The notes under the pieces: generated by a model
What the model was told of the DNA's origin: nothing
Databases searched by the model: none
What the model saw: only the letters and a program-made list of their open reading frames with translations
In this document: piece after piece, positions 24,001-48,000 of the stretch
How positions within the stretch are numbered: position 1 is the stretch's first letter
Layout of the letters: each line of letters opens with the position of its first letter
NCBI GenBank assembly: GCA_030650425.1
Contig: JAUSED010000005.1
Coordinates: 14,932 to 78,931 of the forward strand
Source: Candidatus Omnitrophota bacterium
GTDB taxonomy: Bacteria; Omnitrophota; Gorgyraeia; Gygaellales; Profunditerraquicolaceae
Length of the DNA: 64,000 bases
Direction of reading: 5' to 3'
Made by a program: the position numbers and the translations under genes

Positions 24001-27000
24001 AAAAATACTGTCAAGATATTATTAAAGGTTAATCCCGGTAAAAAAGAGAAAGAAATTAGAGAAGATATTATTAATAACTGGGTGGCTTACAGAGGAACAT
24101 ATCTTTACAATACCACAAAAACTATAGAGCACTCTGCGATCCCTGCGTATAAGCTTTTATTTATGAATAAATTAAGTAACTTTGTTACTCTCAAGGATGC
24201 CGAAAAAAGGATTATTATAAATTGGTTCAGCAGCTATTTTGCTACAGTAGTGAAAAGAATTGAAGATTTAAGCAAGGAGGAAGACGAGCTCAATAAAGCA
24301 ATGATAAGAAAAGAAGAAGAATCTAAAAAAGAGAAAGTAGCAGATAAAATCAATAGAATCAGTAAAGAAATTGAGGTAATAAAAGAAGAGCTTAAAAAAG
24401 TGCAAAGCGAAAAGGCAAAACTTGATGAATACAGAAAGAGACTAGAGAGTATCCAAACCTCCGGTAAATATCAAGTATTGATTAGTGAATGGGAATCCGA
24501 TAGTGAAGCTGGCAAGAAATTTAATGAGAAGATGCAGAATGAGATAATTGAAGACCTAATCTCTAATTATTTACGTATACTATTAATTTATAATTTTGAT
24601 ATGAACAGCCAGAAAAGGGATATTGACAATGAAAATATCTACAAAGAATTCTACAATAAGGGTTGGACAGTGAATAAAAAATCATTGCGGACCATTGCTG
24701 CTGCCACTGATGAATCTTCCCGATTTTACGATAGCAAGGTTCAGGCTTGGGCATTTGCCCGTCCGTATCTAGGCCCGCAAGAAAATAGCGGGGTTCTGGG
24801 AGCTGAAGGTTTACAAACTCCGGGGGTATTATTTTCAACTGACTGGTCGCATTTAGCCTTTCCCGCTAATTTCTTCCTGCTTCCTTATGATACTTACGAA
24901 TTCACTAAAGATCATAAATTGGGTATTCTTCTGGATAAATTATTAATAGGCGATGAAAATATTACTTCGGCTAATGAATGCGCCAAGGTTTCTGAAGATT
25001 CCTGGAATACCAGAGTTATTCCGCCAAAATCTGTGACTAATACTCCGAGTTATTATGGTAAAGGTATGATGCTGGTTGACGCACTGGATGCGGTTTATGA
25101 ATCTAAGATTGAAGATACGGCCTCAGGTAATGAAATCTTAAAACAGGGGTATGCCAGTCGTTACAGCCCGAGGACAATACTTTATCAGGCTAGAGAAAAG
25201 GTGTATGGAGCATTCCCGGCTTTCTTTGGCAGGTTTGGCGCTCCCATTGCCGATGATTTTTTATCTGTACGTTTCCAGAAATTTATTCGCTCGCCAGATT
25301 TGGATTGGTCAGAAAAAGCAGGGATTATCCTTGACTATGATTATTATCTTCATAAACCATGGATTCTAATGTTGAATTTTACCATTTATGTACTTGGTTT
25401 TTATCTTATGTGGAATGTATTCAGCTACTTGGCGCTTCCGCTTATTGCAGTGGTCTTGGGACAGATATTCTCCCAGTCTATTACCGGCTCTTCCGCCGGA
25501 TACTTTATCAGGGAAAGAGGATGGTTTAAAGGCTGGTCGTATCATATAGATTTATTCTTTAGGATGATATTTGTATTTGTTCCTTTTATACCGTTACTCT
25601 CCAATAAGATATTTCAGGCGTTAGAGGGACTATCTGGGGTCTTTACCCGCGGGCTCAAAAGTACGGATTGGGCAAAGGTTCCTTTTAGCGACCTGTTTCA
25701 GGTGTTTAGGCGAGGTATCATAATAGGGTTTTGGTTGGGATTGATATTTATTGTCTCGCCATATCATCCCTATGGCATTCTTGCTCCAGTGTTTTTCTTT
25801 TTCTTCCCGCTAGCTTTTATTATCGGCCCGTTTTTGAACAATGGTTCATACTGGGCTAGCCTTTGGCAAATTATATCCGTTATTCCCTATCTATTATTTG
25901 ATTGGGTGGTGAAGTTTACAGAAGAAAAGGCGTTAGTAAGGGCATTGAATAAAAATTGGGGGCAACTTAAAACTAAGATTAACGCGGATAAGGACCTTAC
26001 GGAAAAATCAAAAGAAATAATTATAAAGACTGTAGAAAATATTTTCCTCTATAAATTAATCTCTGATATTAAAGATAGAAGTAAGATAAATCTGGTTTGG
26101 GAGAGGTTTGATTCATTAATCCCAAGGATAAATATTACCAAAGATGGAAAGCTGCATAAGTTACTGTCTTTAGAAAACAAAGATTCAGAAAATAAGGATT
26201 CGAAACGAAAGATATATCCTTTTTTAAAGAGTTATATAGTTATAAATTCTGCAGGCGATCAAAATATAGGCGCCAAGAAGAAAAGAATATTGCAATGGAA
26301 TTTTAAGACTATACGGACCAAGAAGAATAATATTTCTGAAGAACTCGATAAGTATGTTGAGGGCTTATGGTTGAGAGAAATATTAAAACATTTACAAGAC
26401 ACAGGAAAGAGTATTAAGGAATTGACTGGAATAGCCGTTGAAGATTATCAGGTTTTTATTTTTGATATAGACGGAACGGTATCGAATAAAGTATCCTTGG
26501 ATGTCAGCCCTAATGCTGAAACTATTGAGCAGTTGTTACTGCTCAATAAGACGGTAGTGATAGTCTCTTTTGCCGGAATCGAAAAGCAGATACAACGCAC
26601 GTATGTTCCTTTAAAACGCTCATTAGAAAGAAAATACCGGGCTGATGTGCTGAAGAATTTCTTTATCTATTCCTGCGGAGCTGGAGCGCTTGCTACGTAT
26701 GACGCTAAAGTCAAACTTATAGATGACAGGGGCGAAAATACCCCCGGGTGGCTGGTCGCGGATAAAGAGTTTACTTTTAATAATGTTTTTGGAAAGACTA
26801 GCGCTAAGATAATTGGAGATATAGCGCAAGGGTTGTTGGATTATATGTATGAATCTGGCGCTAAACAAAGTATTTTTAGTGATGATGTGCTAGCTAAAGA
26901 TAGGGCTTGGGATACTGACAACGCTAATAAAAAAGTTGATCGGCGCGGAATTACATTACTGCTTCCTAAGGGCGAAAAAGCCGGTGATTATTATGAGAAG

Positions 27001-30000
27001 GCTAAACCACGGACAGTATCCCAGCTTGCATTTTACGCTCCTCCGGATTTAAGGTTGATGCTTTTAATGAAGATGAGGCTGTTAGTTAAGAAAGCAATTG
27101 GTTTAAAGTTAGAAGAGGTTAGGAAAGAGCTTAGAAGCCTTTTAGGTACTCAATCTGAAAAAGTTCTGCAGAAAATAGGCGGCGATAAGGAACTAATCAG
27201 AAATTTGGTTTTATGGGAATATTATAAGGCCATAAAGTCGGAGGATGATACAGAAGGATTGTTTAAGTTCGCAGAAGCAAAGATTACTGATAGCCTTGGT
27301 GCTTTGGTGGATAACGAGAATAAGGCAAAGATTATGGATCTTTTAGCTGCTTATGCGGATATTTCCCGTCCAATTGATGTCAGGGAAGGTGGCCAGGTCG
27401 ATAAAGGAAATACCGTAGAGGTCACTCTTATTACAAAAGGTGGAAAACTAAACGCGTTGGAGAATGCCGTTAAAAGATTGGCTAATAAAGAAATGGAAGG
27501 TATGTCCGGAGAGGAAAAGAAGAGGCAAAAAGAAGCAATTATCAAGAGAATAGGCAGTCACGCAATGTATTTTGGCGATGAATGGTGGCTTCCCGAAGAT
27601 CCAATCAAGGTAACATTAAATCCGAAAATTGACTATAAGCGAGTATTTGATCTTAATACATGGGAAATGACGCCGGAAGAAAAGTTTATTTATGAAAGCT
27701 GGTTTCTTGGCGACATAATCAAGGATGATAGAAAACTTACTGAGGTAGTCAAGCAGAGGGCTAAGGATACTGGCGAAGTCAGAGAAGGCGAATTGGCGGG
27801 AGATAAGATAAAAGAAAGAGTTGAGCTTATAAAAGGTAATCCTGCTAAATATTATTTTAGCCTTGACCAGAGCGGAAGTTTCATTTATGAAAATAAGCTT
27901 TATTGGCGCGGAGAAGGTAATGATGTTTCAACAGTATTCCATCCTGATGCTTTGAAGGTATGCGTAACAACCACAGATAGAATACCGCAAATTTCTAATA
28001 CGATAATGAAGGCAGTGGGTATAGGTAAAAAAGAGAAAGGGAAAGGCTATATCGTTTTAGACAAGCCGGAAGAGCTTAGCGCGGATTATCATGGAGTAAA
28101 GAAGATCAATACTCTAGCTTTTAAAAATGCAGGGGGGGATGGTTATTCTTATAAATTTGTCTGGATGCCGCAAGGTGATCCTGACGCTACCGCCAGATGG
28201 CTGACTAAGTGTATAAATGAAACAATACTGGAGCAAAAAGTTTCATCATCTTCCGCGTTAAGCTTAGGAAAATTGTTTATAGCGGCAGCCGTTCCAATGT
28301 TTGCTTTTTCAGCTTGTGCCCAGAGCGCAGTACAATCACCGTTAGTTACACAAATCTTTAACTCGATTTTAGATAATCCGTATATCAGCATTATTATAAT
28401 CGCAGCGTTGTCAGGAATATGGATTTATCTTAGAATAACTCGGGTACTAAGATTGATTAGGAAATTAACCAATTCAGAATCCGTTATCCGCCAATCCGCC
28501 TATGATGCTTTAGAAAAACTAGGTGCATTAACAACAGATTTAGAAATCAGTAAATATTCTGTAGATTTAAATATTAATAATATTGATATCACTGCAATCA
28601 ATGCCTTGAGTAAACTTAATGCCTTAACTACTGAACAACAAGAAAAGGCAGTCACATCTTTAAGGAATATGTTAAGTATTGCAAATGAAGAGATCCTATC
28701 TATTCCCCAATTTATCATTACTCATTATGCCGGAGAATCTTATAATCCTATTCCTTGGGAAAAGCCGAGAGGATATGAGATTGATGGTTATGAGGAAGAA
28801 ATTTTAACAGAGGAGAGGGTAGAAGAGAATTATGACTATTTTATAATTAATAGTCGCATAAATAGATTAGAAAAAGAAATTAAAGAAATAGAAAATCTTA
28901 AAACTTGCGATAGGGTTTTACTTCAAACTTCAAAGAATAGTTTTAGTGAACTAGAACAATTCTTAGCCGAAGCCCAAGCTCAAGGCAGAACAGTTTCAGC
29001 TAAGGCTTTAGCCGAGGAAATTGAGCGTAGGAATAAAGAGGGTCAGGAAAAGGAACAGAGGGAAAGAAAATTCGCTGAGTTGACCTCAGCAATGCAAGAA
29101 AAAGAAAAGATTATCGCTGAACTCAAAATCAGGGCAGTCGAGCTAGAAGCTAAACTCAATGAAAGCCGCCAACAGGAATCTAACGTAACCAGTGATTTAA
29201 ACCAAGCTCAAACCGAGAAAGCAAAAATTGAAGCTGCAATAACTGAGTTAACTGAAGATATGGCCGGGGCTACCCTAGCGAAAAGAAATATAACAGTCAA
29301 CGTTCTATCCGCTGCTCTTAATCAGAATCAGCAATCACTTCAACCATTGGTCCAGAAAGCTCAGGAATTAGAGAATCTAAAAATTACTTCAGCCAAACAG
29401 ACAGAAGTAATAGAAACAAACCTTTCCTTAATTCAACAAAACTTATCTACTGTTAAAAGAGAATTAGCAGCTCTTGATAAAGTGATGAGTGATTTACGAT
29501 CTTCCAGCCCTATCCAAACCGGTGCATTGGTTGGGACGAGGTTTGAGCAACAGGTTGCCCGGTTGATGGGCGTGGGGTCCCTTAGCGAAACCCTACGCGG
29601 TATTGATATTAGAACTAAGGAAGAATTGGCTAACGGGGCTATAGGGCAGATTAACTCGTTCTTAGCGGCAAAAGGCCTTTCCCTAGATATCATTACTCAG
29701 GAGCAATTTAACCAATTTTTTGGAGTGCGGCCCATAGTAATGGCTGCGGGTAATGCCACTAGATTCTCAAGGTTTATCCATAAGTGCCTTGCCTTCGCAG
29801 GGTTAGACCAGACTAATATCGCTAATGCCATCAAAGGCGCCTATACTTCTCCTGAAATTCTGCCGGTTGTAGCTGTCTCAGAAAAAATCTTTGGGATGTT
29901 GGTTAAAGATGAATATTTGAACGGTTATAATACCAGTAATTTTCACTATACTGTCAACGAAGATATTAAAAAAGAATATATCGTTGAACGCGCCTTGGGG

Positions 30001-33000
30001 AATAGCGAAAAAATCACCGGCAGATTAATATTACCTGATAATGAGATCATTGATCAGGGGAAAATGCTTAAGCTTTTCGGACAAGAGGCCATTCTGGCCT
30101 TAGCGAATTCCAAAGGCCATGGGGATGCTTTCATTATGATTGCTCAAAAACTTAAGGAAGTCGGTCTGCTTGCGCAGGTTGCCTATCTGCAGGTAGCTTT
30201 TGGAGAGATTTCGCCAGCAGTCTTGAATAAATATTATAACGCTTCATTTATTACCTATATGGAGGCGGTTGCCCATAATCATCTGGTTGTCAGTGGAGGC
30301 AAGATATCCAAGGGACAACTTAAAGCAAAGGGTCACTTTTTCTTCAACAATGGGCGCCTTATCTCTTATACAGATTGGGAACAGATTCCCCATAAGGCTA
30401 AGATGGCAGGTTATCAATATGATAAGATAGCCGAATTAGCCCCAGAGCAGGAATTATTGGAAAATAACTTGAGGGACCTTATCAAGGCGCATCAGGCAGG
30501 CGAAATTAACGACGCTGGTTTTAACGGTAGAATCACAGTTTTAAGGAATGAGCATCCCTATTATTTGATTTCTGATCAAGGCGTACTTTTTAGCCAAGAA
30601 ACGCTTGAGACAGCGGCAGAATATGTCAAAACAAGCTGGGCTAAAGGGTATAGCGATCTTACCGAAGGATTACGTAAAATAATCGATGATTACTTACTGC
30701 AAGTAAAAGATGCCAGCGGAGAAGAAATTACCGCGTTTTTAAATAAACATTTCGCCATTGAGATTGTTGATATGAAGAATAATAAAGCCGACATATTGAT
30801 TTCATCCAATACCGGAATCTTTAAATCGGAAGAGCTGATCCATTATCATGAAACAATAGCTCAACTCTATGACCAATTTAAAACGGCAGGTGAAAGTAAT
30901 CTGTTCTGGGGAATAGAACCGAAAGATAATTCAGAAAAAACCCTGACTTGGAATATTATCAGGATGATCGCGCAAAAGCCAGACAAGCAATCCCAAAGCG
31001 GCTTTCGTTTTGTAGGTGATGCGCCAGCATCTATCAAAGATGGTTCGCGTCAGCTTGGTTTTGTGAAAGAGTATCTTGAAGAATTCGGGATGCCTCAATT
31101 ATCGACAGTTATTGGATCTGAAGCGGAAACTATCGGTGCATCTTTAGAGCATCAGCAAATTGATCAGGCCTATAATCAATTCAAGTCTTCTATCGCGGAA
31201 AAAGATTTTGCCTTCCTACGCACACTTTTAGAGCAATTATTTATTTTCTGTTCACAAAAAGCTTCTCAGGGGAACCTCTTGGAGCTTATAGAAAGATTAG
31301 AAGCCAATCCGGATGAAATCGCTTCTTTAACCATTCTTAGCCAGCATTCTGCGCGGGCTCCTCCAGTAAACTTAATTAAAGGATTACTTATCCATACTCA
31401 ATATGAAGCCATTGATAAGGGTTATCTCTTTGAGGGGTTGGATAAGAGCCTTTGGATAGAAGAGAAATCTCCCCATCTTGCCGCATTATACAAACGTATT
31501 AAAGTAATCGCTGAGAAAGACAGCGATTACCTAATTGTCAGAATCAATGATATCGCCAGCCTGCTTAATGGAAATAATAACAATTCAGACATACAATCAT
31601 CCTCTGCCGTTATCAACCCGAGTTCGTACCTGCTAAATATCTTTTCTGAAAATCTAGCTCTATTAAATGCCTATATTGATAAAGCAGCCGTTGCCAGAGG
31701 GCTCAGCAAAGAAGAAATCATTAAAGGGATGTTTTATCCGGAAGATAGAGAGAGCGTACGGGGTAAGATAAAAGAAGAACTTTCTAATGGCCGGACCGGG
31801 CAGGAGAAGGAGAAAAGAGAGCGTTATCTTTGTTTTGGTGGTGGCAGCGGTACGTTGGCAATTTTGAAACCGCTAAATAAGCTTCTAACTTCTTTAAGTT
31901 CGGATAAGGCAGCTAAAAATGCTAAGAGATTTGTGCATGTGTTGCAGAGTTCTATTGATGACGGAGGCTCGACCTTTAAAATGATCACGGGATTGATCAA
32001 AAAAGGCTATGGCTGGATGCCTTCTGTAGGCGACCTAGTGAATAGCTTGTTTAAAGGCTTTGGGTCAACGGCAAAGTTATATAAGGTATTGGATGACCAA
32101 GGCCGCGTGAAATTAGCAAGTGAAGTTGACCTAGAGAAAGGCAAAATTCCGGCTATCGATAAGACCGGCAGGCCATTTGAAAAGGGAAAGATTGTATTTT
32201 TTGGGGAAGGATACGATACTGGCGATAAAAATGATGTGGTATACGTGGATACCTTTAGAGATTTAATGATTAGATTATTAAAACGTAATGTTACCTATAC
32301 TTTGGTTACGGAGGGCGGTATAGGTTATATGGAGCCCAAGATAAAGGCTTTAGACGAAGATTACGTGTATTTTATCAGCAGTATGATGAATCTCGTAGAT
32401 ATTATCGAAAGGTATATCAAAGATAAGGTTATTCCGTTGGATGGCGCCAGCATCAGAAATTTATTGTTGTTGGGGGCGATAGACTACCTCGGCTTAATTG
32501 ATATCCAACATCCGAAGTATAATGTTGGGGAACTTGAGTTCTTAGCGGCCGAAGAGAGAGAGTTTAAGCTTTTCCACGAAGGCTTAAAGGCCCTGGCTAA
32601 GATGGCGAAACTGGATGAAGTCGTTAAGGTGTCGCTTTCGCATAAGCATCCGACAACCGTGTATGCTGTGTTTGATGAGACTGTGATTTTGATTGAGGAC
32701 ACAAGTATAAATTCAGAAGAAAATAAGTACGTGGTTACAATAAAGGTAGATAAAAATCCCTTTCTCGAAGCGGAGGTTAGAGTCCACGGTGGTAAATACG
32801 GTCCTATAAAATACCCGCCGGTACGCCTCGGCTGGAAAGAGCTTATCGGAGTAGGGGGAGGAATCGAGATCTGTGTTCGGATCAATCAAGCCGGAGAGGC
32901 GTTAGTTAGTATTGGTAGGAAGGAAGATAAAGAACTTAGCAGGGAGATTAAAATCGTGGAACAAGAGTTTCTTGAAGAAAGCTATATTGAGTATATGGGG

Positions 33001-36000
33001 AAGAATTATCGAATGGTAACTGATGGGACCGGATTACTGCGTGAAGAAGTAAAAGATGCAAAGGGAGTATATGAATATAGGCCGCTTTCCATAGGGGCAT
33101 TGAATATTTTCATTCGTAATCGATTGGTCGCTATGCAGACGCATGTGACAGAGACCCCGAACTACTCTAAGGTTATAGATTTTGGGGTTGCAGAAAAAGT
33201 ATCGGAAGAATGGGTGAAAGTGGAAGAAAAACAAGAACCCCAGTTAAGGAATATATACAGGAAAAATCCAAAGCTGCGTTTGGTTTGCAATAAAGATGTT
33301 ATTCGGGATATCTTATCCAGTAAAACAAGGGGTATTACCTTTGGCCCCGGCTCGTTCTTTACCAGCACCATGCCTCACTTTTTGGTTAAGGGATTGGCTA
33401 AAGCCTTGGTCCAGCGTAGGAAGAGGGGTGATATTCCCATTATCTTTATTTTTAATCCTAGCGTAGATAATGAAACAGCAGGCTACAGCATAAAAGACTT
33501 GATGATTTTTGTTAAGACAAAAACCGGGTATAAATTTGACCAGATGTTTACCGGCATCAGCGTAACAAAGTTCGATACCGTAAAATTGGAAGAAAGTTTT
33601 GATGTTGACATAAAGAACCGGCCCTTAGGCGCCGATTGGTATGTTGAACGCGTACTGGAGAATTCGCATTTGATTGATGAGTTGGGGTTAGAATACATAA
33701 AGATGCTGATCGGAAAATATAGGGAGATGGAAAGGAAAGGAGAAGTAATCCAAGATGATGACAGGACAGAGATCATTGGTAAAGAGGCCGGCCGAAAGGC
33801 GAACCTGAAGGAGTATCTAGAGTATAAAATAGATCAGCTATTAAAAGCTCTTTATGAAAAACCCGTAGCAGAGATCCGCACAGACCCCGGTCAGGATTCC
33901 AAAGAAGCAAAGAAATCCCGCGGCCCCTTGTACTTAACTAAGGAAGATCAGTACCAGATTATGGAGGAATATAGGCAATTAAGGATCCACAAAGATGAGT
34001 TTATAGCAGGTGTTGAGTTTAGGCCGCCTCGAGGGACAGGAGATAGTTTAGGTTTAGGCATAGGGTTCTGGTCGGATTCTACGTTATACGGATTAGGGGA
34101 TGTGTTAGGGATTACAGGGTACGCCCAAAAATTAACCGAGGCCTATAAAACTATGGTTAAAGAAGAGGTGCCTGTGGAGCGCAGGGATGGACAGGATGAT
34201 TTCGCTTATATCTTTGACCAACTAAAACGGGCTATACTAATTAAATTAGACTCGGAAACACGAAAGTATTTTAACCAGTTATCGCTAAATGGCTTTAAAA
34301 GGGCGGTCAAAGGGGTCCTGATACGTGAAAATCTGGAAAAAAATAAGAAAGTTGGTTTTGGGATCGCCTTAAGGGCGAAGTTAGAATTTAATAATGAATT
34401 TATCTCTAGCCTAAAAGAGATTAAAGCGCAAATTTCTAAGATTATCCAGGGACGCGTGGAGTTTGATGATGAGTTACGGCTTAGCCTATTGGCTGTGGTA
34501 CGCACTAAGAATTACGAGGCAGGAAAAACAGAATCAGTTTATGCGGCGTATGAAGCAGTTAAAAGAGTTTTAGGAGAAATTGACAATTTCTTTGCGGAGA
34601 ATGTCTCGATTTATAACGGTAAGCTGATTAAGAGCGTAGAAGAAGGGATCAGAGAGATTGTGAAGGTTCATCAGCCTTTTGCCCTGAGGGTAACGGGTTT
34701 GAATTGTAGCGGTGGAAGTGGCCAAATCTATTTAGAGCTTGAGCCTATAAACCAATACGCGACAGAAGGAATATTGAAATTATTGAAGGTGCAGAAAGAC
34801 CTCGAACGCCTGCCTACAGAGTTAAGGATAAAAAGGTTGAATTTTACTTTGGGCCGCTTGACGCAGGCCTTAGATGATGAAGGACTTAAGGATTTGGATA
34901 GATTAAACAAAGACCTGGATTTTACCCATTTCATGCCGTTGAATGTACGTCAATTGGAGGCTTTGATTTATTGTGACCGACTCCACCGTGTTGTGGCAAA
35001 CAAGATTGATTTGACACTAGGCATAGAAAACGAGGTATTCAGTTTTACCGAGATGCTAGAGATTATCCGCACGCGGTATCCAAAGGCATTTGTAGCGTCA
35101 TCTTCTCCGGTTAATTCCAATAATATATTCAACGCCAATGGTTCGGTAGTTAAACCAATGCACATAGTCATGGTAAGCGCTGAGGCATATCCTTGTTCTT
35201 ATGCAGGATTCTTAGGGCAGAATTTAAATAGGCTAGCGAGGTCTTTTGGAGAAAGAGGTATCGAGGTAACGGTTATTATGCCTCTATACAAAATAACCAA
35301 AGATCAATATAGCGCCCAGTATAAATTTTATGGCCAGATTGATGTACCAATCGGTTATCAAACAGAGAAAGCAAAGATAGATATTCTTTCCGATGAGACA
35401 GCGGTATCCTATTATTTTATTGATAATGATAAGTATTTCGGAAGCGATATGTCTTATGGTGAATCTGGCAGATCTGATGATGCCAGTTATCAGAATCAAG
35501 CAGATCGGTTTGTCTATCTACAACGGGCCGCCTTGGAATTAATAAAATCCGGCATAGTGGCGCGTCCCGACGTCATTCATGTCCATGATTGGCCTATTTC
35601 CTTAATTCCTCTGCTGCTTAGCCCAAATACATCCGTATATAGTGATGACATAGCTTTAAAGAATATACCGGTTGTTTTAAGCATTACTAATTTCACCTAT
35701 AACGGAATATTTGATAACCCGTATCATGTCGCATATTTAACGGGTCTACACCGGCCTGCGCAGGCAGTTTATCCAGCGGCCTTGGAATTCTACGGCCAAG
35801 CAAATTGGTTAAAAGCAGGGATAATGTCCGCTAGAAAGATTGTTACTGTCGGGTCTACCTTTAGAAACGCGACATTAACCGCGGAATCGGGATTTGGATT
35901 AGAGAATATCTTAAAACTTAGAGAAAATGATTATTTAGGTATATTGCCTGGAGTTGATTATGAGGCCTTTGACCCGGTAGAGGACGTATGTATTGAAGAA

Positions 36001-39000
36001 CGATACACTGTAGAGACTATTGACCTTAAGAGTAAAAATAAGGAAGCCTTATTAAAAAGCTTTAATCTCCCTCTGGAGGATATAGGTCAACCGATATTAA
36101 CGATAATTTCGAAGCTGGATAAAATGAATGGTATGGATTTATTAGAACAAACAATGGAAGATGTGCTGAAATTGGATACTAAAATTATTATTATGGGAAC
36201 CGGGGAAGAAAGGTTTGAAGATTTTTTTAGGAGGATGAAAGAAAAATATCCAAAACGCGTCGGATTATATATCGGTTTTGATTCAAACTTAATGCATCTG
36301 ATGATTGCTGGCAGCGATATATATATAATGCCTCATTCTGCTGTGCCTGGTTCATTTGTCCCCCTGTATAGTTTAAGGTACGGCACAGTTCCTGTAGTAA
36401 ATGCCATTGGTATGTTGAATGATGCGATAATAGATTCAGGACTGCCGGGAGAGCAAACCGGTTTTAAATTTCATGGTTATTTGCCCAATAATTTACTCTA
36501 TAAAATAACCGAAGCAATCGAAATCTATAGAAGGGATCCGCAGAGGTGGGAGCAGATTATGAAACAAGGGATGCAGCAGGATTTTTCTTGGAATATAACA
36601 GCTCAAAAATTTGTAGAGCTGTACAAAGAAATACAAAATCTTAGCTGGCTGGAAGAGAGCATTATACCGCCATTTAAGATGGAGAGAGCCGAAGGGATAG
36701 GTAAGAATAATATATTTGATATTGCTTTACCACGGAGTAAAAAAGACAATTTAATTAGCGGATTCGAACAAGCTAAGCGCATAATCTCATTACGTTACGC
36801 GCAGGATATAATTAACCCCGATGATTTGTGGATAGAAATTCTCAATATGCAAGATTTATCAAGGCACCGGAAAGACCGGGATAAAAATATAATTTTACTG
36901 GATATGGAGGTATTAAATAACCCCGATTTGGTTGCCGCGCTGATGATTAAGGAAGCAGAAATAATCGTTAATAATGGGGTAAGTGGGGAAGAACAGGCAT
37001 TAAATTATATAAGAGTTTGGGTGGATCTTTTCCAGCATTTTCATGCTCTTAATCCTGATAAACAGGCAGGTTTCCTAGCTTCCCTCTTGTTTGATAAAAG
37101 GCATGATAATAAGTGGCTTATTTCATCATTAGTGAAAACTTATAATCAAGAGTTTATATTTAAAGAGATGTTAGATGTATTAAAGCATAATCCGCAATAT
37201 GAAGTGGTGGCAGACTCGGCTGATATTTTCGAAAAAGCATATGAAGAATCCGCAGAGAGAAATATCCTTACTTATATATTAGAATACGCATATTCTAATA
37301 ACCAGTTTAGTTCGTATTACTTGAATAAAAAAGATTTTGAAATCAAATTTAGTTTAATAGTTCATATGTCGGGGGTAATGGCGAAATGGAACTATGCCCC
37401 CGTTGTCTTTTGGGATGTCCTATACCAGGAATTAGTTAAAATTGGTTTTGCTAAAGAAGTTACCCTATATTATGATCGAAAAGAAGAGGGAAAAAGTGGA
37501 ATAAAGATCTTTATTCCCGATTTTGAGAAAGTACCGTATTATCAAAGAGAAGAGCAACAATTGATAGCCGCCAGATACATCGCGGCTTATATTAATAACG
37601 GAGCAAATTCGATAGGGGCTTGCCGAGTCCTAATAGAAGGTGTAGACGAGGTTTTCTTTTTAATTATATCCCAAGTATTTAAAAATGGATATGACAATCC
37701 TTTAAATAAAAACGCTGAAACCACCAGCCAATACTTAACTAATTACTACGGGGGAAACTTTATTATAGAATTAGTCAAAGGAAAAATACAGGCATTAGAA
37801 GAGATGCCAAGATTAACTATTGAGCGAGAGGGAATGTTTAATCCGTTCAGAAATGTGCTGGTGGGTTTAGATATGGGCGGCTCTTATATAAAGCTGGTAA
37901 TCATAATCAATGGCAAGATAGTGTCTCTTGAGCAAGATTCAATAGAGACGGGGCAATTTAAAAGACTGGAAGACGGCAGCCAGATTGTGCCTGAAGACTA
38001 TACAGGTGAAAATTTATTACAAAAAATTGATCATTTTGTGCGCTCATCTTTAAAAAAAGCTAGGATTAAACTAGAGGAGGTAGCCGCAATAGGCGCAGCT
38101 TGGGCGGGCGCGATACGTAACAATAGAATTGCAGGCTCTTCCACTATGCTTTTTAATCTGAGAGACTATTTTAGCAATCCAGAAGTGCAGATTAAAATGA
38201 AGAATTTGTCTGATACATTATCCAAAATATTTGATAACAAGCCTGTTTATCTTATAAACGATGGAGACGCAGATGCTTTTAAGATGAGCCTAGAAGAAAA
38301 TCTCGCTGATGTGCTTGTGTTAAAATTAGGAACCGGTTTAGCGGGCTCCTATATCGATAAGAGTGGTTCGATAGCCATAGGCCTCCATGAATTCGGGAGG
38401 ATACAATTGAATTTATCCCCTAATGCAACACGGCATCCATTTACGGGAGTGAAGGGATTAGGAAGATTATATGTTTCCAGCCAAACAGCAGTTGAATATG
38501 GCAAGAAAGCGGGATTAATAGATAAAGTAAAAGAATTGGGGAATATGTCATTTGAATCTAAAACGGTCAGTATGTTGATTGCGGCAGGATGGGATGCCCA
38601 GTATGTTTTTGAAGACGTATCCCGCAATATCGTTGATGCCATAATACATTTACATGAATTTTACAATAACAGGAACGTTTTACTATCAGGCGGGGTGTTA
38701 AAAGGGGCTACTGGATCATTTGTCCATGAAAAAGTACAAAAATTATTATATACCAAATACAGTGGTTACAAAATCAAAACCTACCTAGCAGCTGAAACGC
38801 AGATTGGTGGAGCAATAGGAGCAGCGCAATGGGCTAATTTTAATTACCAATTAAAAGAAAAGCCTACGATTAATGAGTCAGCTTCTTCTGTAGTTAACGC
38901 TCCTGGCCCGGATCTGTTAAATATTTTTTCCAATAATACCGAGTTTTTAAAAAGCTATACTAAAAAGGCGGCTAAATCCAGGAATATTATGGAAGAGAAT

Positions 39001-42000
39001 GTCGTTAGAGGAATGTTTCATCCTGATGACCGGAATGTGGTAAGGAAAGAGGTAGGGGAGCAGATTGTTTTAATGCATGCTCCTCCGAAAAATAAAAAGC
39101 GTATTATGTGTTTTGGCGGCGGAAGCGGCATGTTGGCAATTCTGGCGCCATTAAAGAATCTGCTATTGTTGTTGAAGGATAAAGAGACTTATGTGCATGT
39201 GCTGCAGACATCCATTGATGATGGCGGTGCGACATTCAAATTAGTGATGGCATTAATTAATAAAGGGTATGGTTGGATGCCGTCTCCGGGAGACTTGGTA
39301 AATTCGCTTTTCAAAGGATTTGCCAATATATCCAAGTCGTATAAGATTTTAGATGATCAGGGCAGGTTAAAGCTGGCTGCGCAGAAGGACTTAGATGACA
39401 GGAAAATACCAAGTGTTGATAGCAAGGGGACTAAATTCGAGGTAGGTAAGATTATATTCTTTGGCGAAGGATATGATCAGGATAGCAATATAGGAGACGT
39501 CGAGTATCTGGATAGTTTTAAGGATTTGATGGTCGCGTTATTGAAACGGAATGTAGAATACACTCTGCAAGCCGTTAACGCAGGGATAGGCTACATTCAA
39601 CCGAAAACGAAAGAATTAGATACGGATTTTGTGTATTTCGCTACCAGTATGCTGAATCTAGCGGATATTCTCCAAGAGTATTTTAATCGAGGAATCATTC
39701 CGTTAGAAGGGGCAAGTATCCGTAATTTATTGTTATTAGGTGCGATAGATTATCTGGGATTGATCGATATAAATAATCCTAAGTATAAAGAAAACGAGCG
39801 TAGTTTCATGGCAGATACAGAAGAAGAATATAAGTTATTCCATAAAGGGTTAGAAAAGTTAGCTGAGATGGCAGGGATCGGTGGTATTGCTAAGGTTTCA
39901 TTATCACATAGATACCCAGTAACCGTGTATGCCGAATATGAAGAGAATGTAATTCTGATTGACGATAAAAGCGTGAAAGAAGAAGAAAACAAATATGTAG
40001 TTACAGTAAAAGTAGACCAGAAAAATGGTAGGGTTACAGTTAGAATTTATAGAGAAGATAACCTTATCGAGGTATACCCGGTGAGTGTAGATTTGACAGA
40101 GGAGATTGATATAAGTGAAACGATTGAAATGAATGTTAAAGTAAATAAAGCGGGGGAGGTATTTATTGGGATAGTTAAACAAGGGGAAGGGAGCCAGCGT
40201 CAGTGGTTTAAGCTTGTAGAAAAAGAACAGCTTGAAGAGAGCTATGTTGAGTATAAAGGGAAGACGCATCGCTTGGCAATTGACGGGACTGGTTTGGTGA
40301 GGCATGAAGCAGGTAAGGATGTGTATGAGTATCGGCCGCTTTCCTTGGAAAGATTAAATGTGTATGTGAGGAATAGATTGGTTGTTATGCAGACGCATAT
40401 TACAGAGACAGCCAACTACTCAAAGATTATCGATTTTGGAGTAGCAGAGAAGATAGGTGAAGAAGCGGTAGTAGAGGGGGGTAAGAAATTTAGCAGGTAT
40501 ATTTACACTAAAAATCCAGACTTACGTTTAGAGGAGAATGAAGATATCGTTAATGAGATTCTCTCTCCAGAGACAAAAGGGATTACTTTTGGTCCGGGGT
40601 CATTCTTCACGAGCTTGATGAGTTACTTTTTGGCAAAGGGATTGGCGAAGGCTTTAGTTGAACGCAGGAAAAGAGGCGATATCCCGATTGTTTTCATTTT
40701 TAATCCTACGGTTGATAATGAAACAGTAGGGTATGAGATTGAGGATTTAACCTCTTTTATTGAAAAGAAGACTAATTATAAATTTAATAAAATGTTTACG
40801 GCCATCAGCGTAACAAAGTTTGATACCGTGAAGTTGGAGGAAGAGCGTTTATTAAAAGATAGTGGGAAACGGCTTCCAGCAAAATGGTATGTTCAGCAGG
40901 CGTTGAAGAAAGATTCGCAATTAATCGAAACATTAGGTTTAGAATACATAAAGATATTGATAAACAAATACAGATTTATGAAGAATCGTGGCCAGAAGAT
41001 TGTTGATGATGATGGAACGGAGATCGGCGGGGGCGAGGCAGGCAGGGATGAATATTTAGAATATAAGATCGCTCAGTTGTTAAAGGCGCTGTACGAGGTC
41101 CCTAAGGCAGAGATTCGTACAGATCCAGGCAAGGCGTCTAAAGAGGCAAAGAAATCCCGCGGGCCATTGTATTTAACTCGAGAGGGTCAAGGAAGTATTA
41201 TGGATAAGTATAAAGATTTGATGATATATAAAGATCAATTTGTAACAGGTATTGAGTTCAGGCCGCCTCGCGGAGCAGGAGATAGATTAGGTTTTGGTAT
41301 AGGTTTTTGGGGAGATTATACGCTGTATGCGTTTGGCGATATGCTAGGGATTACGCATTATGGACAGTTTATGGCGGAGATTTATAAGGATAAGGTAGGT
41401 AGTATTCCTTTGGAACGAAGAAGGGGGTGGAGAGGGGACTTTGAGCGCATATTTGATCAGATAAAGTGGGGGATGTTTGAATTAGCGCCAGAGGCCAGAA
41501 GGTATTTTAATCAGATGTCTTTACATGGATTCAAGAGGGCAGTCCGGGGGATCCTGATGTGTGAAAATCTCGCGAAGAACAGCAAGCCCGGGTTTGGAAT
41601 TACCCTTAGGGCGCAATTAAAATTCGCTGAGAAAAAACCCGAAGAAGACGCAGTTGTAGCTATGATAGAAAAGATTAGAGCGGAGATAAGTAACATTACG
41701 CATGGCCGCGTAGAGTTTGATAATGTGCTGCGGCTTAGTTTATTAGCTGTGGTGCGGACTAAGAACTATAAGAAAGGAGATGGAAAGTCGATTCGCAAGG
41801 CATATAGAGAGACGAAGCGTGTTTTAGAGGAGGTCAAGAAGCGCTTTGAGGACAATCTGCTGATTTATAATGGTAAGGTGATAGAGAAAGCCGAGGATGG
41901 AATCATAGAGATTATGAAAGAAAACCGGTCATTTAGTTTAAAGATTAGCGGGGTTAGTTATGAAGAGGCTTCTGGCGAGGTGTCTTTGGAATTAGAACCT

Positions 42001-45000
42001 ATTAATGAATATGAGGGGGATGAATCGTTAAAGTTGTTGAAAGTGCAGGGAGATTTAGAGAGGTTACCTACGGAGCAGAGGATCAATAGGCTGCGTATTC
42101 CTCTGGGATGGATGACGCATGCCTTGGACGATGAGCAGGTAGATGAATTAGAAAAAATAAATGGGAATAATAATTTAGAATTTTCTCAGTTAACCCCTAT
42201 AAAGGTAGATAAGCTAGAGGTTTTATTGTATGGTGACCGAAGACATCATAATATTATAGAAATTATTGAATTACAATTAGGTCAAGAAAACCCGCCTTTT
42301 AGTTTTGAGGAGATGTTAAAGAAGGCGCGGAAAAAATACCCGGAGGCATTTGAAACGACATCAACTTCGTCTTCTCCGCTTGAGATAGATGATGGATTCC
42401 GGGTATTGCCGGAAATTAAAGGAAGGACAAAATTAATCCGTACTAGTTATAAACGAACAAGAAACGGCTTTTACAAAGCCGCAAGTATTACTATTCCAGA
42501 TTATGATGTAAATGATCCCGTGAGTATTGAATCCACTGCCACTAGGCTTGCTATCGAGCTTAACAATAGGCTGGCAATCTTTGGCGGGGATAAGATTAGA
42601 TTAGCCGTAGACAAGAACCTTTTTAAGAGGGTTAATGAAATATTCTTTGGATTTGGAGCTCCCTGCTATTTCCAGAATAATGGATTTCTGGGTATGGTAA
42701 CATACTTGAAAACTGTTTATGAAAGCAAAGAATTTGTTATGGAACGCCTTGAAGAGGGGGCATTGGAGGATGAGTCCTTCAGTGAAGTGGAGGTTATCAA
42801 TTCTATTGATACAAGGGGCCTTTGGTTTGGGCTTGATATTGGCGGTTCTGATCTAAAGACTGTTGTAGTCTATGATGGCAATCGGATTCATCATAAGATA
42901 ACTAAATGGTCGCCTAAGACGATGATCGATCCGCATGCCGAAGATGGGCATATTCCTGTGATTAAAAATATTCTTGAAGGCGTGGTGAAGGAAGCTAAAG
43001 ATAAAGGGTGTGATACCTCTAAAGCCATGGGTATAGGTGTCAGCGTTAACTTGGCTGTAGTGAATAACAAAATAACCGGGGTTGGGCATTTAACCGCGGG
43101 ATTAAAGAACGCTGAACAGATTGACGTTGTTAGGGGTTTGGGTAAAATTTTAGAGCAAGAGTTTGGTTTGTCTGTTTATGTTATAAATGATGGCGACGCC
43201 GCTGCAATCCAGACAACCGTCGACATGGGGTTGCAATATGCTCTTAGTATCGCAGGCGGCACAGGATTAGCTATGGGTTATGGTTCAACACAGTTTTTGA
43301 CCGAGGGCGGTAAAATTATGATTGATGTATCCGAGACAGCGGCGGAACACGGTACAACAGGTATTAAAGGAAGCGCTCAACAATATATCTCTCAACGTGC
43401 TGTATTCAGGCTCGCAGCAAAGGCAGGTATTGGTTTAAGTAGCCTTGAGAGGGATGCCGATAAGCTAACTTATATGCAGAAATTATATGAAGAGAACGAT
43501 GAAAAAGCTGTTTTAGTTTTTAATGAGATGCCGAAATACCTCGCGGAGTTTATTAAAATTGTTTCAGAGATCATACGAGTTGACAATGTTGTACTCTTTG
43601 GGCGTATCAGTAAAGGTGCGGCTGGCCGTGACTACATAGATAAGGCTCAGGATATCCTTAACCAACGCGGTAGTAATATAAAGATTCTTTTCCCGAAAGC
43701 TCCTTATGGCGTTGACCAAGAGATTTACCTTGAGGTGGGGCAGGCCGTGGGAGCAACATATTATGCCAGCTATATGTTTCATAAGAATCTCAAAAGATTG
43801 AATGATTCTATAAATGTCAGCAGTCCTTTAGAAAGGATGACTATCGAAAAAGGTATTTTTAAAACCAATGATATCCGGGCTGCTCATGCCGAAAGTAGTT
43901 TAACAAAAGAGGTCACGCGGAGGATAGTCAGGGGTTTTGCGACTTTTAGTGCCGAAACCTTAAAGAAGAAAAATTTAGTATTGACAGTAGGCAGAGATGT
44001 GCGTTTGACATCAGATAAAATTCACAAGGATAGTGTAGAGGCTTTGAAAGCAAGCGGAGCCCGAGTAATTGACTTAGGGATAGTGACAACAGGGATGCTT
44101 TATTATTCTATACCCCTCTACAAGGCTGATGGCGGCATTATGATTACAGCAAGCCATAATCCTTATCATTACAACGGATTCAAGATGGTTTTGGGGTTAC
44201 GTAATACAGTTAGAGAAGAACTGGTTAGAATTCATGAGATCGCCGAAAGCGGCCGGTTTATTTCAGGAAGAGGCTGGAAGGAAAACAGGAATATCCTTAA
44301 CGAATACAGGAAATTATTAGAGAACGCATCCGGTGATTTAAATGGTTTAAAAATAGCGATTGATGTTTTAAATGGGGCAGCGGCTATCTTACCTCTTACG
44401 GAGATATTTGAATCTTTAGGCGCTAGGGTCATAATTATCAATGGCGAAGCGGATGGTAACTTTCCTAACTGCGTGGACCAGTCTCCCGATCCATCCCTAT
44501 TTGTCAATCGCCAGAATCTTGTAAACATTGTTAGGGAGAAGGGGTGTGATGTGGGCATTGCTTTCGATGGAGATGCTGATCGCTTGGTGTGCGTAGATAA
44601 TACTGGAGAATATATTTCAGGCGATATTGTTTTGGCAGTGTTAAGCCGGGATGGGCTGATTAAGAATCCGGGGGGAGTTGTGGTTTTTGATGCAAAGTGC
44701 AGCTTAGCGCTTACTAAAGTAGTGGAGGGGATAGGTGGCCAGGCTATTCGCTGGAAAACGGGTTTTTCTAACATTAAAGAGAAAATGGAAGAAACAAATG
44801 CTGTTTTAGGCGGAGAACAGTCAGGACATTTTTTCTTTAAGGATCATTATAATATTGATGATGGAGTTTACACAGCCGTTAGATTTTTAAGACTTATCGC
44901 TAAAGCAAAACAGCAGAATAAGAGGGCTCACGATTTTGTTTATGAAATACCGCATTTTCCTTCTACTCCGGAACTTAGATTTGAGGTTACCGGCGATTCT

Positions 45001-48000
45001 CCCGACGCGGAAAAACATCGTATTATCAAAGAGCTTAAAGAGTATTTCATCGGCCAAAATTATCCGATCGATGAAACGGACGGCCTTAGGATACTTTTCC
45101 AAAACGGATGGGCTTTGGCCAGGGCTAGCGGTACACAACCAATGATTATCTGTCGCGTTGAAGGAGGGAATAAGATTTCCTTGAGGACTAGCCTTTCCAT
45201 CTTATTTAGGAAACTTCGAGACTATCCCCGGATAAAAATAGGCCCTTGGAATGCTTATTTGGAAGAGCCCAAGGGATTAGCTAGAAGAATTGATTTAAAC
45301 GATCGTAATTTTTCTCTTAGAGAAACTGTTGGACAGGCGTTGCCTCTAGAATATTATTATCAGACAAATATGGAAGAGTTTGGGTTTAGTAAATACGTCC
45401 ACACTGAATATCCTTATGTTGGGCAAACAAGTTATTGCTTGGGGGGAGAATTTTTAGTGACTGAAGAGAACAAAGCCGATTATAAGGTGATTTATTTCGG
45501 AAAGATAAACAATCCAGATGGGCGCTACGAGGCAGAGATTTTGATTTACTACGCGGTAGTAAGTCATGCGATTCACATTGTCATAAAGGACGCAAGCAGA
45601 GATAGTTTTATTTTTGGGAGCAGTGCGAAGCGGGGCGAACTGGATTGGGATAAGGCTATGATTATTATGTACTTAGGAGAGGGTTTCAATGTTAAAAATG
45701 TGACGCATAAGGTAACTCCTATGGGGATGTCACGTTCTATGATAGCGATTGTTATCGAGGATGCGCATATTAGTAGATTTTTACCTGAACTATACCGGAT
45801 TTTTCGGATTCTTCTTGGGCTTCCAGAAGTCAATGAACAGACCAGAAGGGATGAGAAGATAGATAGCGCTATTGTTCCTTTAAGTTTAATCGTTAAAGCT
45901 AATGAAAATCCCGGAGATCTTAACGAAGATGAGATTGAGCGGGTCAAATCTTTTGTTTCTTATAAGAGTTGGGCGCTCAAGAGGATTGGGTTGGATACCT
46001 TAAAGAGGTTGCGTGGTGTAGGCAGGGTCACGGATAGCGACGTGGAAAAGTACGACAACGCAGGCCTAATGAGAAATGCTAATGAGGATTTATTACAGAT
46101 TGATAGATTGTTAAGGAGCGATAAGAAGTTATTGAACGAGGCTTTGAATAATTTAAATATACAGGCTGGTCCTGTTAAGCAGATGGAGCTGGAATATTTC
46201 GAGAGAGGGAATAATAAACAGGTGTATGTCAAATTTTGTGACGAAGAATTACCGACTATGGCTGTTTCTGTTATTCGCTATGGCAGCTTGGGAGTGGAAT
46301 TCAATAAACTGGCCATCATTGAATCGATGAGGCTCTGGGAAGACTTATCCGGAAATAGCATAGAAGAGATCGTGAAACTTGGCAGTTATCGCCTTATGGA
46401 AGATTATCGCCCTCGTTTTAGCGATATCAGCTTTTTGCCAAACGCCAGATATGAAGGCTATATCGATGTGAGTAGATTTATTTACAACAATATTGTTATT
46501 GTTTTCAGGGAATTTGCCGAAGGACGAAATTTGAAAAAGGTTTTAGATGATCCCCATGTTTCAGAAGCCCAAAAACATCTAGCGTTAGAGTCAGCCATTA
46601 GGACATATTTAAGGTTCTGGATAAAATCTAAGAATAAGGAAGGGCAGAGGCTATTTATTGGTGATCCCACGCCATTTAACATTGTTCTTCTTGAGAAGGA
46701 AGAAGGTTATTCCGGGAAGATCATTGATTTAGATGGTATTCAGGTAGTTAAGTCTCTTGAGGATTGTTTAACGATTCTTTTTAACGTTGGTTATGGCCGG
46801 AATACGATTTTAAAGATTGCGAAAGAGGTGAAAGATGCCGGAAACGTTAGTTCTCCCGTATCGTTAAGACACCGGATATATATAACAAGCCTTGGAGGAG
46901 GTTCAGGGCCCCAGAGACTGGCCAAGGGTATTATTCGCTATAACTGTTTTCTTTCTAATATTATAACCGTTTTTGATAATGCTGGGAGTACTGGCATTAT
47001 GCGCAGGGCTTTAGATATTCCTGCCGTAGGGGATTTACGCAATAGGCTTGTTACCCTGCTGCCTGAAATCAAAGAAAACAAAGTAATAGAAACGATATTC
47101 AATTATAGGTTTCCCGAGGAAAGAGAAACTAGAAAAAATAATGAAGAACTAACGGAGGAGTTAAGAAAAATAATTAAAATTAGTGAAAAAAGTTTAGGGA
47201 TAAGAGTGCCTAAAGTAAAAAAAGAATTTTTGCAAGGTTTAATAGAATACTTTATTCAGGAAAAGATTAAAAAGGAGCATGGATTCAGATTGTTTGAAGC
47301 GAATGTGGGTAATATCATCTTAGCGGGTAGATATTTCAGAGAGAAAGAAGATTGGGTTTCGATTATGAAAAAATTATGCGAGCTCTTTGGCGTAAATCGA
47401 TATGCGAAATTGATTCCTGTGAGTTCAGAGAATTTGGATATTGCCGCGCGTCTTGAGAATGGAGAGATTTTTTACGGAGAGCATGAGATTGCTTTTCGGC
47501 CAGATCAGGAAGCGAAGATTAAGGAAATATTCTTTGTTAAAAGAGGTTCACAAGAGAAAGCCGATTTACCTGAAGCCACAGAAGAAGCCTTAAATGATAT
47601 TGGAACCGCAGATATAATTATTATTGGCCCCGGGAGTATAACTAGTTATATCCCTGTTTTGTTAACTCGTGGAATTGCGGGAGCAATCAGACAATCTCAG
47701 GCGGCTAAGGTTTTGCCGGTCAATATTTCTTGGTATAACTTTAGAGAAGGCTTTGCGGAAGCCAAAGGATTAGCAGCTAGTGATATGGTGAGAATGGCAT
47801 TTGAATCGTTAAGAAACGCGGATGAACAGCCTAGTAATAGGATTAGCGATTACATTCAATATGCTTTATTGAATCTTCCAGTTTCCACTCAATTCTATCA
47901 TATTCCAGCTGATCTAGACAATATTCGCGCAATGGGGGTAGAGCCAATCGTTTCTAACTTTGAAGATGATTCTACGCCCGGTTATCATAATTCAGAAAAA

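Follow-up and report, generated by a model that had tools for sequence, protein, structure and literature searches.

A sugar-phosphate block in a giant Omnitrophota reading frame joins expanded CofD/YvcK-like modules to a glycogen synthase-like domain with a degenerate donor site

We analysed a 64,000-nucleotide (nt) stretch of a Candidatus Omnitrophota genome (contig JAUSED010000005.1; hereafter, the window) that lies entirely within one giant open reading frame (ORF) and encodes a block of sugar-related domains. A preliminary description of this DNA had read the block as a complete glycogen-biosynthesis pathway fused into a single chain. Domain families, catalytic residues and predicted structures instead point towards a block that supplies or senses sugar phosphates and nucleoside diphosphate (NDP)-sugars, in which a phosphohexomutase is intact and the glycogen synthase-like domain has lost its donor site.

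A sugar block within one giant ORF

Frame +1 contains no TAA, TAG or TGA codon across the 64,000 nt, and each of the other five frames contains 752–2,196 stops. The ORF (1..64000, plus strand) encodes at least 21,333 amino acids (aa) and runs past both window ends; only three ORFs of at least 150 aa lie wholly within the window, all on the minus strand. Protein positions convert to window coordinates as nt = 3 × aa − 2, and every protein feature described below is on the plus strand. Because all three stop codons are missing from frame +1 over 64 kilobases (kb) and all Pfam domain matches share that frame, we rejected recoding or an assembly artefact as an explanation. The region genuinely belongs, without interruption, to a giant gene of Candidatus Omnitrophota type; the sugar domains do share one reading frame, as first proposed, and no stops separating them were found.

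From its N-terminal side, the block comprises a helical lead-in and an orphan segment (the N-segment), a CofD/YvcK-like module (P1), a GlgA-like domain, a first ROK-like unit, a paralogue of P1 (P2), a second ROK-like unit, a phosphohexomutase (PGM), a 572-aa segment (45166..46881) without an assignable domain or any Pfam or NCBIfam match, and a compact CofD/YvcK-family domain. Pfam confirmed the originally stated order for P1, the paired GT5 and GT1 domains, ROK-like unit 1, P2, ROK-like unit 2 and PGM I–IV. The motifs quoted at that time were also correctly placed: AAGNATRF at aa 9915 (nt 29743), HVHDW at aa 11860, LRYGTVP at aa 12125, TASHNP at aa 14716 and DGDADR at aa 14856.

The GlgA-like domain lacks the ADP-glucose contacts

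The GlgA-derived domain (aa 11720–12216; 35158..36648) matches Glyco_transf_5 (PF08323; aa 11721–11972, 159 bits) and Glycos_transf_1 (PF00534; aa 12029–12184, 31 bits). It scores 378.4 bits against TIGR02095 (cut-off 328.45), has the two-domain GT-B layout and aligns end to end with the glycogen synthase of A. tumefaciens (1rzu; E = 8e-59). Its closest relatives are standalone GlgA proteins with 31–38% identity, and a scan of GTDB representatives with this domain returned standalone GlgA genes only, at 33–35% identity, from Acholeplasmatales and Anaeroplasmataceae.

We compared the domain with 120 standalone GlgA proteins, in which 80 alignment columns are near-invariant (at least 93% conserved). 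It deviates at 26 of these 80 columns (reference median 0.5, maximum 16). The ADP-glucose contacts of Escherichia coli glycogen synthase include Lys15 and Gly18 of the KxGGL motif (PMC6210743, Table 2), and its donor-site residues are His161, Asn246, Arg300, Lys305, Glu377, Gly380 and Leu381 (PMC7137382, section 3.2). All nine positions are substituted here (K15Y, G18F, H161T, N246P, R300K, K305N, E377V, G380S and L381F), so that KxGGL reads YAGFL, and each of the nine is retained in 117–120 of the 120 standalone relatives (Lys15 in 117 and Gly18 in 118). Giant-embedded GT5 domains are not degenerate in general: the copy in P0003, a different giant, diverges far more overall yet retains His, Arg, Lys and Glu, which indicates that the donor-site loss is specific to this copy.

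Judged from these residues, it is very improbable that the domain functions as a glucan synthase using NDP-glucose, and we infer that the description that suits it best is a pseudo-enzyme or a binding module. The label of GlgA-type glycogen synthase therefore stands for family and layout but not for catalysis. With the ADP-glucose contacts gone, the proposed chain from glucose through glucose 6-phosphate, glucose 1-phosphate and NDP-glucose to alpha-glucan breaks at the polymerizing step; the preliminary description had itself named missing catalytic residues as an outcome that its reading could not survive. Profile hidden Markov model (HMM) scans of the 64-kb window found neither a branching enzyme (GlgB) nor a GlgC-type domain.

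An intact phosphohexomutase and two divergent ROK-like kinases

The alpha-D-phosphohexomutase of the PMM/PGM type (aa 14619–15055; 43855..45165) had been named as phosphoglucomutase, and this assignment was upheld at the level of type. All four domains, PGM_PMM I–IV, exceed their Pfam cut-offs (100, 70, 89 and 33 bits against 22.5, 29.3, 20.7 and 23.1), and the match to P. aeruginosa PMM/PGM reaches E = 6e-84 (285 bits). Every catalytic motif is retained: the phosphoserine loop (TASHNP), the metal loop (DGDADR), the sugar loop (GEQSGH, aa 14938) and the phosphate loop (RASGTQP, aa 15041). The PGM domains of two related giants also retain the Ser and DxDxDR by alignment.

The two ROK-like kinase units belong to the ASKHA fold and are 27% identical to each other. 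Unit 1 (aa 12482–12958; 37444..38874) matches Pfam ROK over aa 12621–12945 with 43 bits and unit 2 (aa 14141–14618; 42421..43854) over aa 14277–14538 with 38 bits, both above the cut-off of 22.9 bits. Unit 1 keeps DMGGS, NDGD, GTGLAG and LSGGV and has no Cys; unit 2 keeps DIGGS, NDGD and GGTGLA, with a weakened adenosine motif (LFGRI) and a single Cys outside the zinc motif. Both units therefore carry the ASKHA phosphate-1, catalytic Asp and phosphate-2 motifs. The ROK zinc motif GHx(9-11)CxCGxxGCxE is missing from both, and ExGH reads EFGR in one and EGGK in the other.

Relatives of these units are few: a search of 5.8 billion proteins returned three weak ones, the nearest from Omnitrophica, and no characterized glucokinase. 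Matches to the Protein Data Bank (PDB) reach only E ~1e-3. At E ≤ 0.01, NCBIfam returned nothing for unit 2 and, for unit 1, only allose kinase and N-acetylmannosamine kinase at 17–20 bits, against cut-offs of 253–450. The earlier reading of both units as ROK glucokinase-like thus keeps its family assignment but not its substrate: 'glucokinase' is unproven because there is no zinc motif, no confident NCBIfam subfamily and no characterized glucokinase among the relatives.

A nucleotidyltransferase-fold family hidden from profile searches

The N-segment (aa ~9843–10518; 29527..31554) represents an orphan family. Its core, at aa ~9898–10131, has a nucleotidyltransferase (GT-A-like) fold and contains AAGNATRF...HK, and a helical extension follows. 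It has no match in Pfam (even at E ≤ 10), in NCBIfam, among PDB sequences or in a PDB profile search. A word-indexed homologue search found a single relative, and 29 were recovered when 1.84 billion representatives were searched exhaustively with HMMER, most of them within proteins of 1,000–7,679 aa. The relatives' alignment defines the signature FG-x-R-P-V-x-AAG-x-(G/A)-(S/T)-RF-S...(H/P)-K, and several members carry the canonical AAGLGSRF or AAGQGSRF. The window sequence has Ala at the second Gly of the G-x-G-T-R signature; the R and K are retained in most of the 17 aligned sequences.

An AlphaFold model built from the family alignment is confident (predicted local distance difference test (pLDDT) score 84.8, predicted template modelling score 0.72). 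Because this model has the nucleotidyltransferase fold, the first guess of an NDP-sugar pyrophosphorylase-like domain was right at the fold level, although it gained no match in the HMM searches that had been proposed as its check. Nothing links the N-segment to GlgC specifically.

The helical lead-in of this nucleotidyltransferase-fold family (29497..29682) matches positions 2–55 of the A2 profile and is one copy of an in-frame direct repeat whose second copy lies at 50479–50664. The two copies are identical at 169 of 186 nt and 58 of 62 aa (93.5%), and their flanks are unrelated. They are far more alike than the P1 and P2 paralogues, and the ~21 kb between them holds the entire sugar block. 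Such similarity points to gene conversion in the recent past, to the scar of a duplication or to a docking helix that is reused.

Expanded CofD/YvcK-like modules

P1 (aa 10532–11710; 31594..35130) has a CofD/YvcK fold split by large insertions, followed by the conserved segment EIRTDPG...AKKSRGP and, C-terminally, by a domain that resembles 2H phosphoesterases. Its motifs GGGSG, DDGG, GPGSFFTS and DNET lie at aa 10612, 10653, 11115 and 11156, and the same motifs lie at aa 13038, 13073, 13531 and 13572 in P2 (aa 12959–14133; 38875..42399). By self-comparison, the paralogues share 57% aa identity over ~1,180 aa and 68–74% nt identity. Together, P1 and P2 hold all of the YvcK/CofD hallmarks (GGGSG, DDGG, GD-x-x-N, G-A-S-x-R-N-L, GPGSFFTS and N...DNET), spread over ~550 aa. 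Partial CofD matches pass the Pfam cut-off of 30 bits in both, at aa 11068–11179 in P1 (37–41 bits) and at aa 13486–13617 in P2 (36 bits). The claim of two CofD/YvcK-like modules is supported to this extent, but only ~110–130 of the ~1,180 aa of each module match the Pfam model. P1 scores 35 bits against TIGR01826 (cut-off 196), and neither module reaches the NCBIfam cut-offs for YvcK or CofD. Within the P1/P2 family, invariant residues are confined to the downstream segment EIRTDPG..S..AKKSRGP.

The likeness to GlmR/YvcK (UPF0052) and to CofD/FbiA consists of the GGGxG, DDGG, GPGSxxTS and N...(N)ET motifs, the fold and the hexose-phosphate context. The modules differ from these proteins in length (~1,180 rather than ~320 aa), in the spacing of GGGSG and GPGS (503 aa, compared with ~245 aa in the compact CofD domain of this block) and in an additional C-terminal ~590 aa that includes the 2H-like domain. 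The predicted structure of P1 has low confidence (pLDDT 61), and we therefore keep claims about the P modules at the fold level. At that level, the P-module model matches CofD/YvcK/FbiA structures (SP_1565, score 11.3; FbiA, 10.0; CofD, 8.8), and its better-modelled C-terminal part matches 2H phosphoesterases (Usb1, 12.5; LigT, 12.3; CPDase, 10.8; AKAP18, 10.2). Unlike the 2H superfamily members Usb1, LigT, CPDase and the AKAP18 central domain, the 2H-like domains of P1 (aa ~11451–11672) and P2 lack both HxT/S catalytic motifs: the strands at these places have the sequences LRLSLL and LNFTLG. With both histidine motifs gone, the 2H-like domain is predicted to be non-catalytic by 2H criteria.

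A third family member, the compact CofD/YvcK-family domain (aa 15628–15986; 46882..47958), lies past the end of the region first described but in the same block. It matches Pfam CofD over its full length (162 bits) and YvcK 2o2z at E = 2e-24; its scores of 162 bits against TIGR04357 and 143 bits against TIGR01826 (cut-off 196) are both under the respective cut-offs, and the DDGG position reads DNAG. The GlmR (YvcK) of L. monocytogenes makes UDP-N-acetylglucosamine (UDP-GlcNAc) from GlcNAc-1-phosphate and UTP and requires D40, D41 and N198 for this activity (PMC10128056). P1 and P2 retain the equivalent D-D and N residues; the compact domain has D-N.

The cassette recurs in other giants and in an unfused cluster

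An N-segment followed by a P module occurs in eight further proteins (P0002, P0003, P0004, P0006, P0007, P0008, P0014 and P0020) at 23–37% identity, and two others (P0027 and P0028) combine a P module, an N-segment and PGM I–III. All named carriers are 'partial' proteins that each fill a short contig in Candidatus Omnitrophota metagenome-assembled genomes (MAGs).

An unfused counterpart is present in an Omnitrophica MAG (GCA_023819145.1, JAMWCW010000001.1, 38815–60644), in which tightly spaced genes on one strand encode, in order, a glycoamylase, a 1,074-aa unknown protein, an 876-aa CofD-family protein, a 609-aa ROK-like protein, PGI, a Glucosamine_iso protein and a PRPP-synthetase-like (Pribosyltran_N) protein. 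The CofD-family protein matches P1 and P2 at both motif regions, and the ROK-like protein matches ROK-like unit 2 at E = 1e-35. The CofD–ROK–isomerase order mirrors that of P2, ROK-like unit 2 and PGM in the window, but the genes are separate, PGI takes the place of PGM and the cluster has no N-segment homologue. The recurrence of the combination both in giants and in this unfused cluster speaks for its selection, and we therefore take the cassette to be a functional unit in the metabolism of hexose phosphates and sugar nucleotides, with GT5 as an optional accessory.

A metagenome scan with the P1/P2 alignment yielded one locus only (Ga0172381_10000209, 7292–16621), which encodes a P-like module with 34–35% identity over ~1,150 aa in an ORF of more than 3,110 aa that runs off the contig end. 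No N-segment, GT5, ROK or PGM domain was found near this module within 16.6 kb of sequence. The ORF is preceded by another of more than 2,350 aa without Pfam domains.

Relation to described Omnitrophota giants

The preliminary description had presented the fusion as a departure from the usual separate genes. Giant Omnitrophota multi-enzyme proteins with GT5, GT1, PGM and ROK domains have, however, already been described, and the block is no isolated oddity but documented Module 2 content of such proteins. Nielsen and Lui (2026; 10.64898/2026.06.07.730766) report 'multi-enzyme metabolic cluster' giants, favour an inner-membrane-anchored, cytoplasm-facing arrangement and define a 'Module 2, sugar metabolism' by Pfam co-occurrence of PF08323, PF00534, PGM I–III, a receiver domain, radical SAM and ROK. 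The window resembles these giants in its ORF of more than 10,000 aa, its many Pfam families and its clustered transmembrane (TM) helices. It shares PF08323, PF00534, PF02878/9/80, PF00072 and PF00480 with them, together with GNAT and HATPase_c of Module 1; unlike Module 2, it shows no radical SAM domain. Of the giants in their catalogue, 153 bear PF08323. West-Roberts et al. (2023; 10.1101/2023.11.21.568195) found GT5 glycogen-synthase-like plus GT1 domains to be the second most common in Omnitrophota giants, with PGM/PMM also present, and favoured extracellular roles in the digestion of prey cell walls. Their giants, including the 'Archaeovorins', share with the window GT5, GT1, PGM/PMM, numerous TM regions and many unannotated segments that need structure prediction. 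They differ from the window in that it has no dockerin, TSP3 or SecA-DEAD match.

The catalogue of Nielsen and Lui is at the Pfam level only and does not mention CofD/YvcK, nucleotidyltransferases, catalytic-residue status or inter-module motifs. A full-text literature search for Omnitrophota with YvcK or CofD returned only the West-Roberts preprint, which mentions neither family. Absent from both preprints are the nucleotidyltransferase-fold family that profile searches miss; the architecture of an expanded CofD/YvcK plus a 2H-like domain, and the way it pairs with the N-segment; residue-level evidence that this GT5 is dead; the unfused counterpart cluster; and a boundary motif, SS(S)P, which is considered with the alternatives below.

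Membrane anchors and surroundings of the block

A Kyte–Doolittle scan of the whole ORF found 41 TM-like hydrophobic segments, which are clustered. The sugar block lies inside a 6,850-aa TM-free stretch from aa 9480 to aa 16329. The last membrane anchor ahead of it is a TM hairpin (aa 9422–9440 and 9462–9480; 28264..28440) with five K/R residues in its C-terminal flank and none in the inter-helix loop; the next TM-like segment (aa 16329–16347; 48985..49041; hydropathy 2.98) ends the TM-free stretch. The K/R-rich flank of the upstream anchor suggests a cytoplasmic side, and the absence of TM segments from the block together with ATP- and NTP-dependent chemistry argues for the same side, so the sugar block is probably cytoplasmic.

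Of the neighbouring domains first reported, the GT2 synthase was confirmed as a membrane-embedded domain (aa 2172–2469; 6514..7407; Glyco_trans_2_3, 66 bits; Glycos_transf_2, 52 bits) with TM clusters on both sides; its DVD and SED motifs are present and its QxxRW motif is inexact. The alpha/alpha-toroid glycosidase-like domains gave only sub-threshold matches (GH88 at 18 bits, SQHop_cyclase_C and Prenyltrans) at aa ~1750–1880. For the HAD sugar-phosphatase-like domain, we found a motif-I-like FIFDIDGTV (aa 8819–8827; nt 26455–26481) and no HAD HMM match in aa 8751–9150. Elsewhere in the ORF, Pfam identified GGDEF, receiver, CBM30, LysM, GNAT and HEAT domains, and a weak HATPase_c. Upstream (window 1390–12381, aa 464–4127), the order is GGDEF (464–575), receiver (834–933), the toroid-like region, GT2, CBM30 (2635–2732) and LysM (4078–4127). 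This layout resembles exopolysaccharide synthases linked to cyclic di-GMP.

Downstream of the block are two families of diverged direct repeats, one at window 48722–48881, 54284–54443 and 59285–59420 and the other at 56514–56600, 61044–61130 and 61959–62045, both with 63–83% nt identity. The downstream nt repeats correspond to protein-level repeats at aa 16158–16294, 18010–18148 and 19720–19807, the first two of which are followed by TM-like segments at aa 16329 and aa 18163, respectively. After the second lead-in copy, at window ~50900–50950 (aa ~16970), the sequence ISIGEGGYSTVFK resembles the glycine-rich loop of protein kinases; Pfam gave no match at E ≤ 0.1 over aa 16827–17300. Across the window, Cys makes up only 0.3% of residues, and all 2-kb bins of the 64 kb show positive GC skew.

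What the block may do

On balance, we think it somewhat probable that the block supplies or senses NDP-sugars derived from sugar phosphates rather than synthesizing glycogen. The ROK-like units would phosphorylate a hexose, and the mutase, for which the intact catalytic motifs provide good support, would convert the 6-phosphate into the 1-phosphate. An NDP-hexose could then be formed by the nucleotidyltransferase-fold domain, by the GlmR-like P modules with their retained D-D...N, or by both. Because its NDP-sugar site is destroyed, the GlgA-like domain would not polymerize the product and would most likely act as a binding or scaffold module. More speculatively, the NDP-sugar might be used or sensed elsewhere, either by the GT2 synthase of the same ORF or by the YvcK-like modules.

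Several points weigh against this reading. The P1 model is of low confidence, and YvcK-family proteins may be regulators and not enzymes. The mutase scores almost equally as PgmG (337 bits against a cut-off of 600) and as archaeal GlmM (315 against 439), and lower as bacterial GlmM (199 against 448), all below cut-off. With regard to location, the positive-inside rule gives a contradictory signal for the TM segment downstream (aa 16329–16347), and West-Roberts et al. predict many such domains to be extracellular. The connection to the GT2 synthase is purely inferential.

A complete and active fused pathway (glucokinase, PGM, NDP-glucose pyrophosphorylase and glycogen synthase) that makes alpha-glucan in cis is, in our judgement, improbable. 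It draws on the GlgA-like domain passing TIGR02095, on the intact PGM, on the presence of a nucleotidyltransferase fold and ROK-like kinases, and on the speculation of West-Roberts et al. about conversion to glycogen. Indeed, the block resembles the classical bacterial pathway (Glk, Pgm, GlgC, GlgA and GlgB, encoded by separate genes) in having kinase, mutase, nucleotidyltransferase and GT5 domains in a plausible metabolic order. However, the GT5 domain is without ADP-glucose contacts (Glu377 being Val), the nucleotidyltransferase is not GlgC-like by HMM, the kinases have neither the zinc motif nor glucokinase relatives, there is no GlgB, and three CofD/YvcK-family units are interleaved. Alternatively, the whole block could be a non-catalytic sensing and scaffolding array of enzyme-derived domains that binds sugar phosphates and NDP-sugars and regulates the rest of the giant, in the way that B. 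subtilis GlmR senses UDP-GlcNAc, and we consider this rather unlikely. Such an array would accommodate the degenerate GlgA-like domain, the 2H-like domains without either His, the missing zinc sites, the weakened adenosine motif of ROK-like unit 2 and the DNAG of the compact CofD domain; GlmR is a UDP-GlcNAc-binding regulator (PMC7525490, PMC6171935), and signalling domains (GGDEF, receiver and a weak HATPase_c) occur in the same ORF. Yet it leaves unexplained why the mutase keeps all of its catalytic motifs, here and in related giants, why P1 and P2 keep the catalytic D-D...N of GlmR, why the N-segment family keeps its R and K, and why the ROK-like units keep their ASKHA phosphate motifs and catalytic Asp.

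The pairing of the N-segment with a P module would also fit a two-step logic like that of CofC and CofD, which we regard as unlikely: the nucleotidyltransferase-fold domain would make an NDP-activated phospho-compound, such as an NDP-sugar, and the P module would transfer sugar-1-phosphate to a hydroxyl acceptor, releasing a nucleoside monophosphate that the His-less 2H-like domain binds and yielding a phosphodiester-linked glycan or a modified lipid or protein. The P motifs are nearer to YvcK/GlmR than to CofD (TIGR01826 and TIGR04357 score above TIGR01819), the acceptor is hypothetical, P2 is not accompanied by an N-segment, and the P1 model has the low confidence already noted. In an extended and distinctly unlikely version, the N-segment and the expanded CofD/YvcK module with its His-less 2H-like domain would form a previously unrecognized two-step cassette, analogous to CofC/CofD, that builds a phosphodiester-linked surface polymer on a membrane-anchored assembly line, with the dead GlgA-like domain holding the glycan and SS(S)P motifs punctuating or processing the modules. 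These motifs, usually in the form [RKV]-SS(S)P-[VLIA], occur in the block at aa 9834, 10533, 11700, 12960, 14123, 14607, 15617, 16021, 16196 and 16316. In the whole ORF, SSSP occurs 21 times and SSP 47 times (0.28 and 3.8 expected from residue shuffling), and the Ser-rich marks in aa 9800–16400 fall on every module boundary except one, these boundaries having been defined independently. A polyprotein that is cut at this recurring boundary motif, so that the enzymes act separately, would account for their placement but strikes us as very improbable: fragments of related Omnitrophota giants show no enrichment of SS(S)P, multidomain proteins commonly carry Ser/Pro-rich linkers, and the literature has peptides from a whole giant protein, without processing data. 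SS(S)P could serve to link domains, or it could mark a site of modification or of protease action.

Implications

Omnitrophota giants rank among the largest proteins that have been predicted. The block supports the reading of a sugar-phosphate to NDP-sugar supply or sensing unit while illustrating that a 'pathway' read at the Pfam level can mislead: a domain passed the glycogen synthase HMM without a donor site, and a nucleotidyltransferase fold was invisible to every HMM. The new elements are useful leads and not surprises of principle. The recurrent cassette and its unfused counterpart offer expressible targets for the first biochemistry of the cytoplasmic enzyme blocks of these giants.

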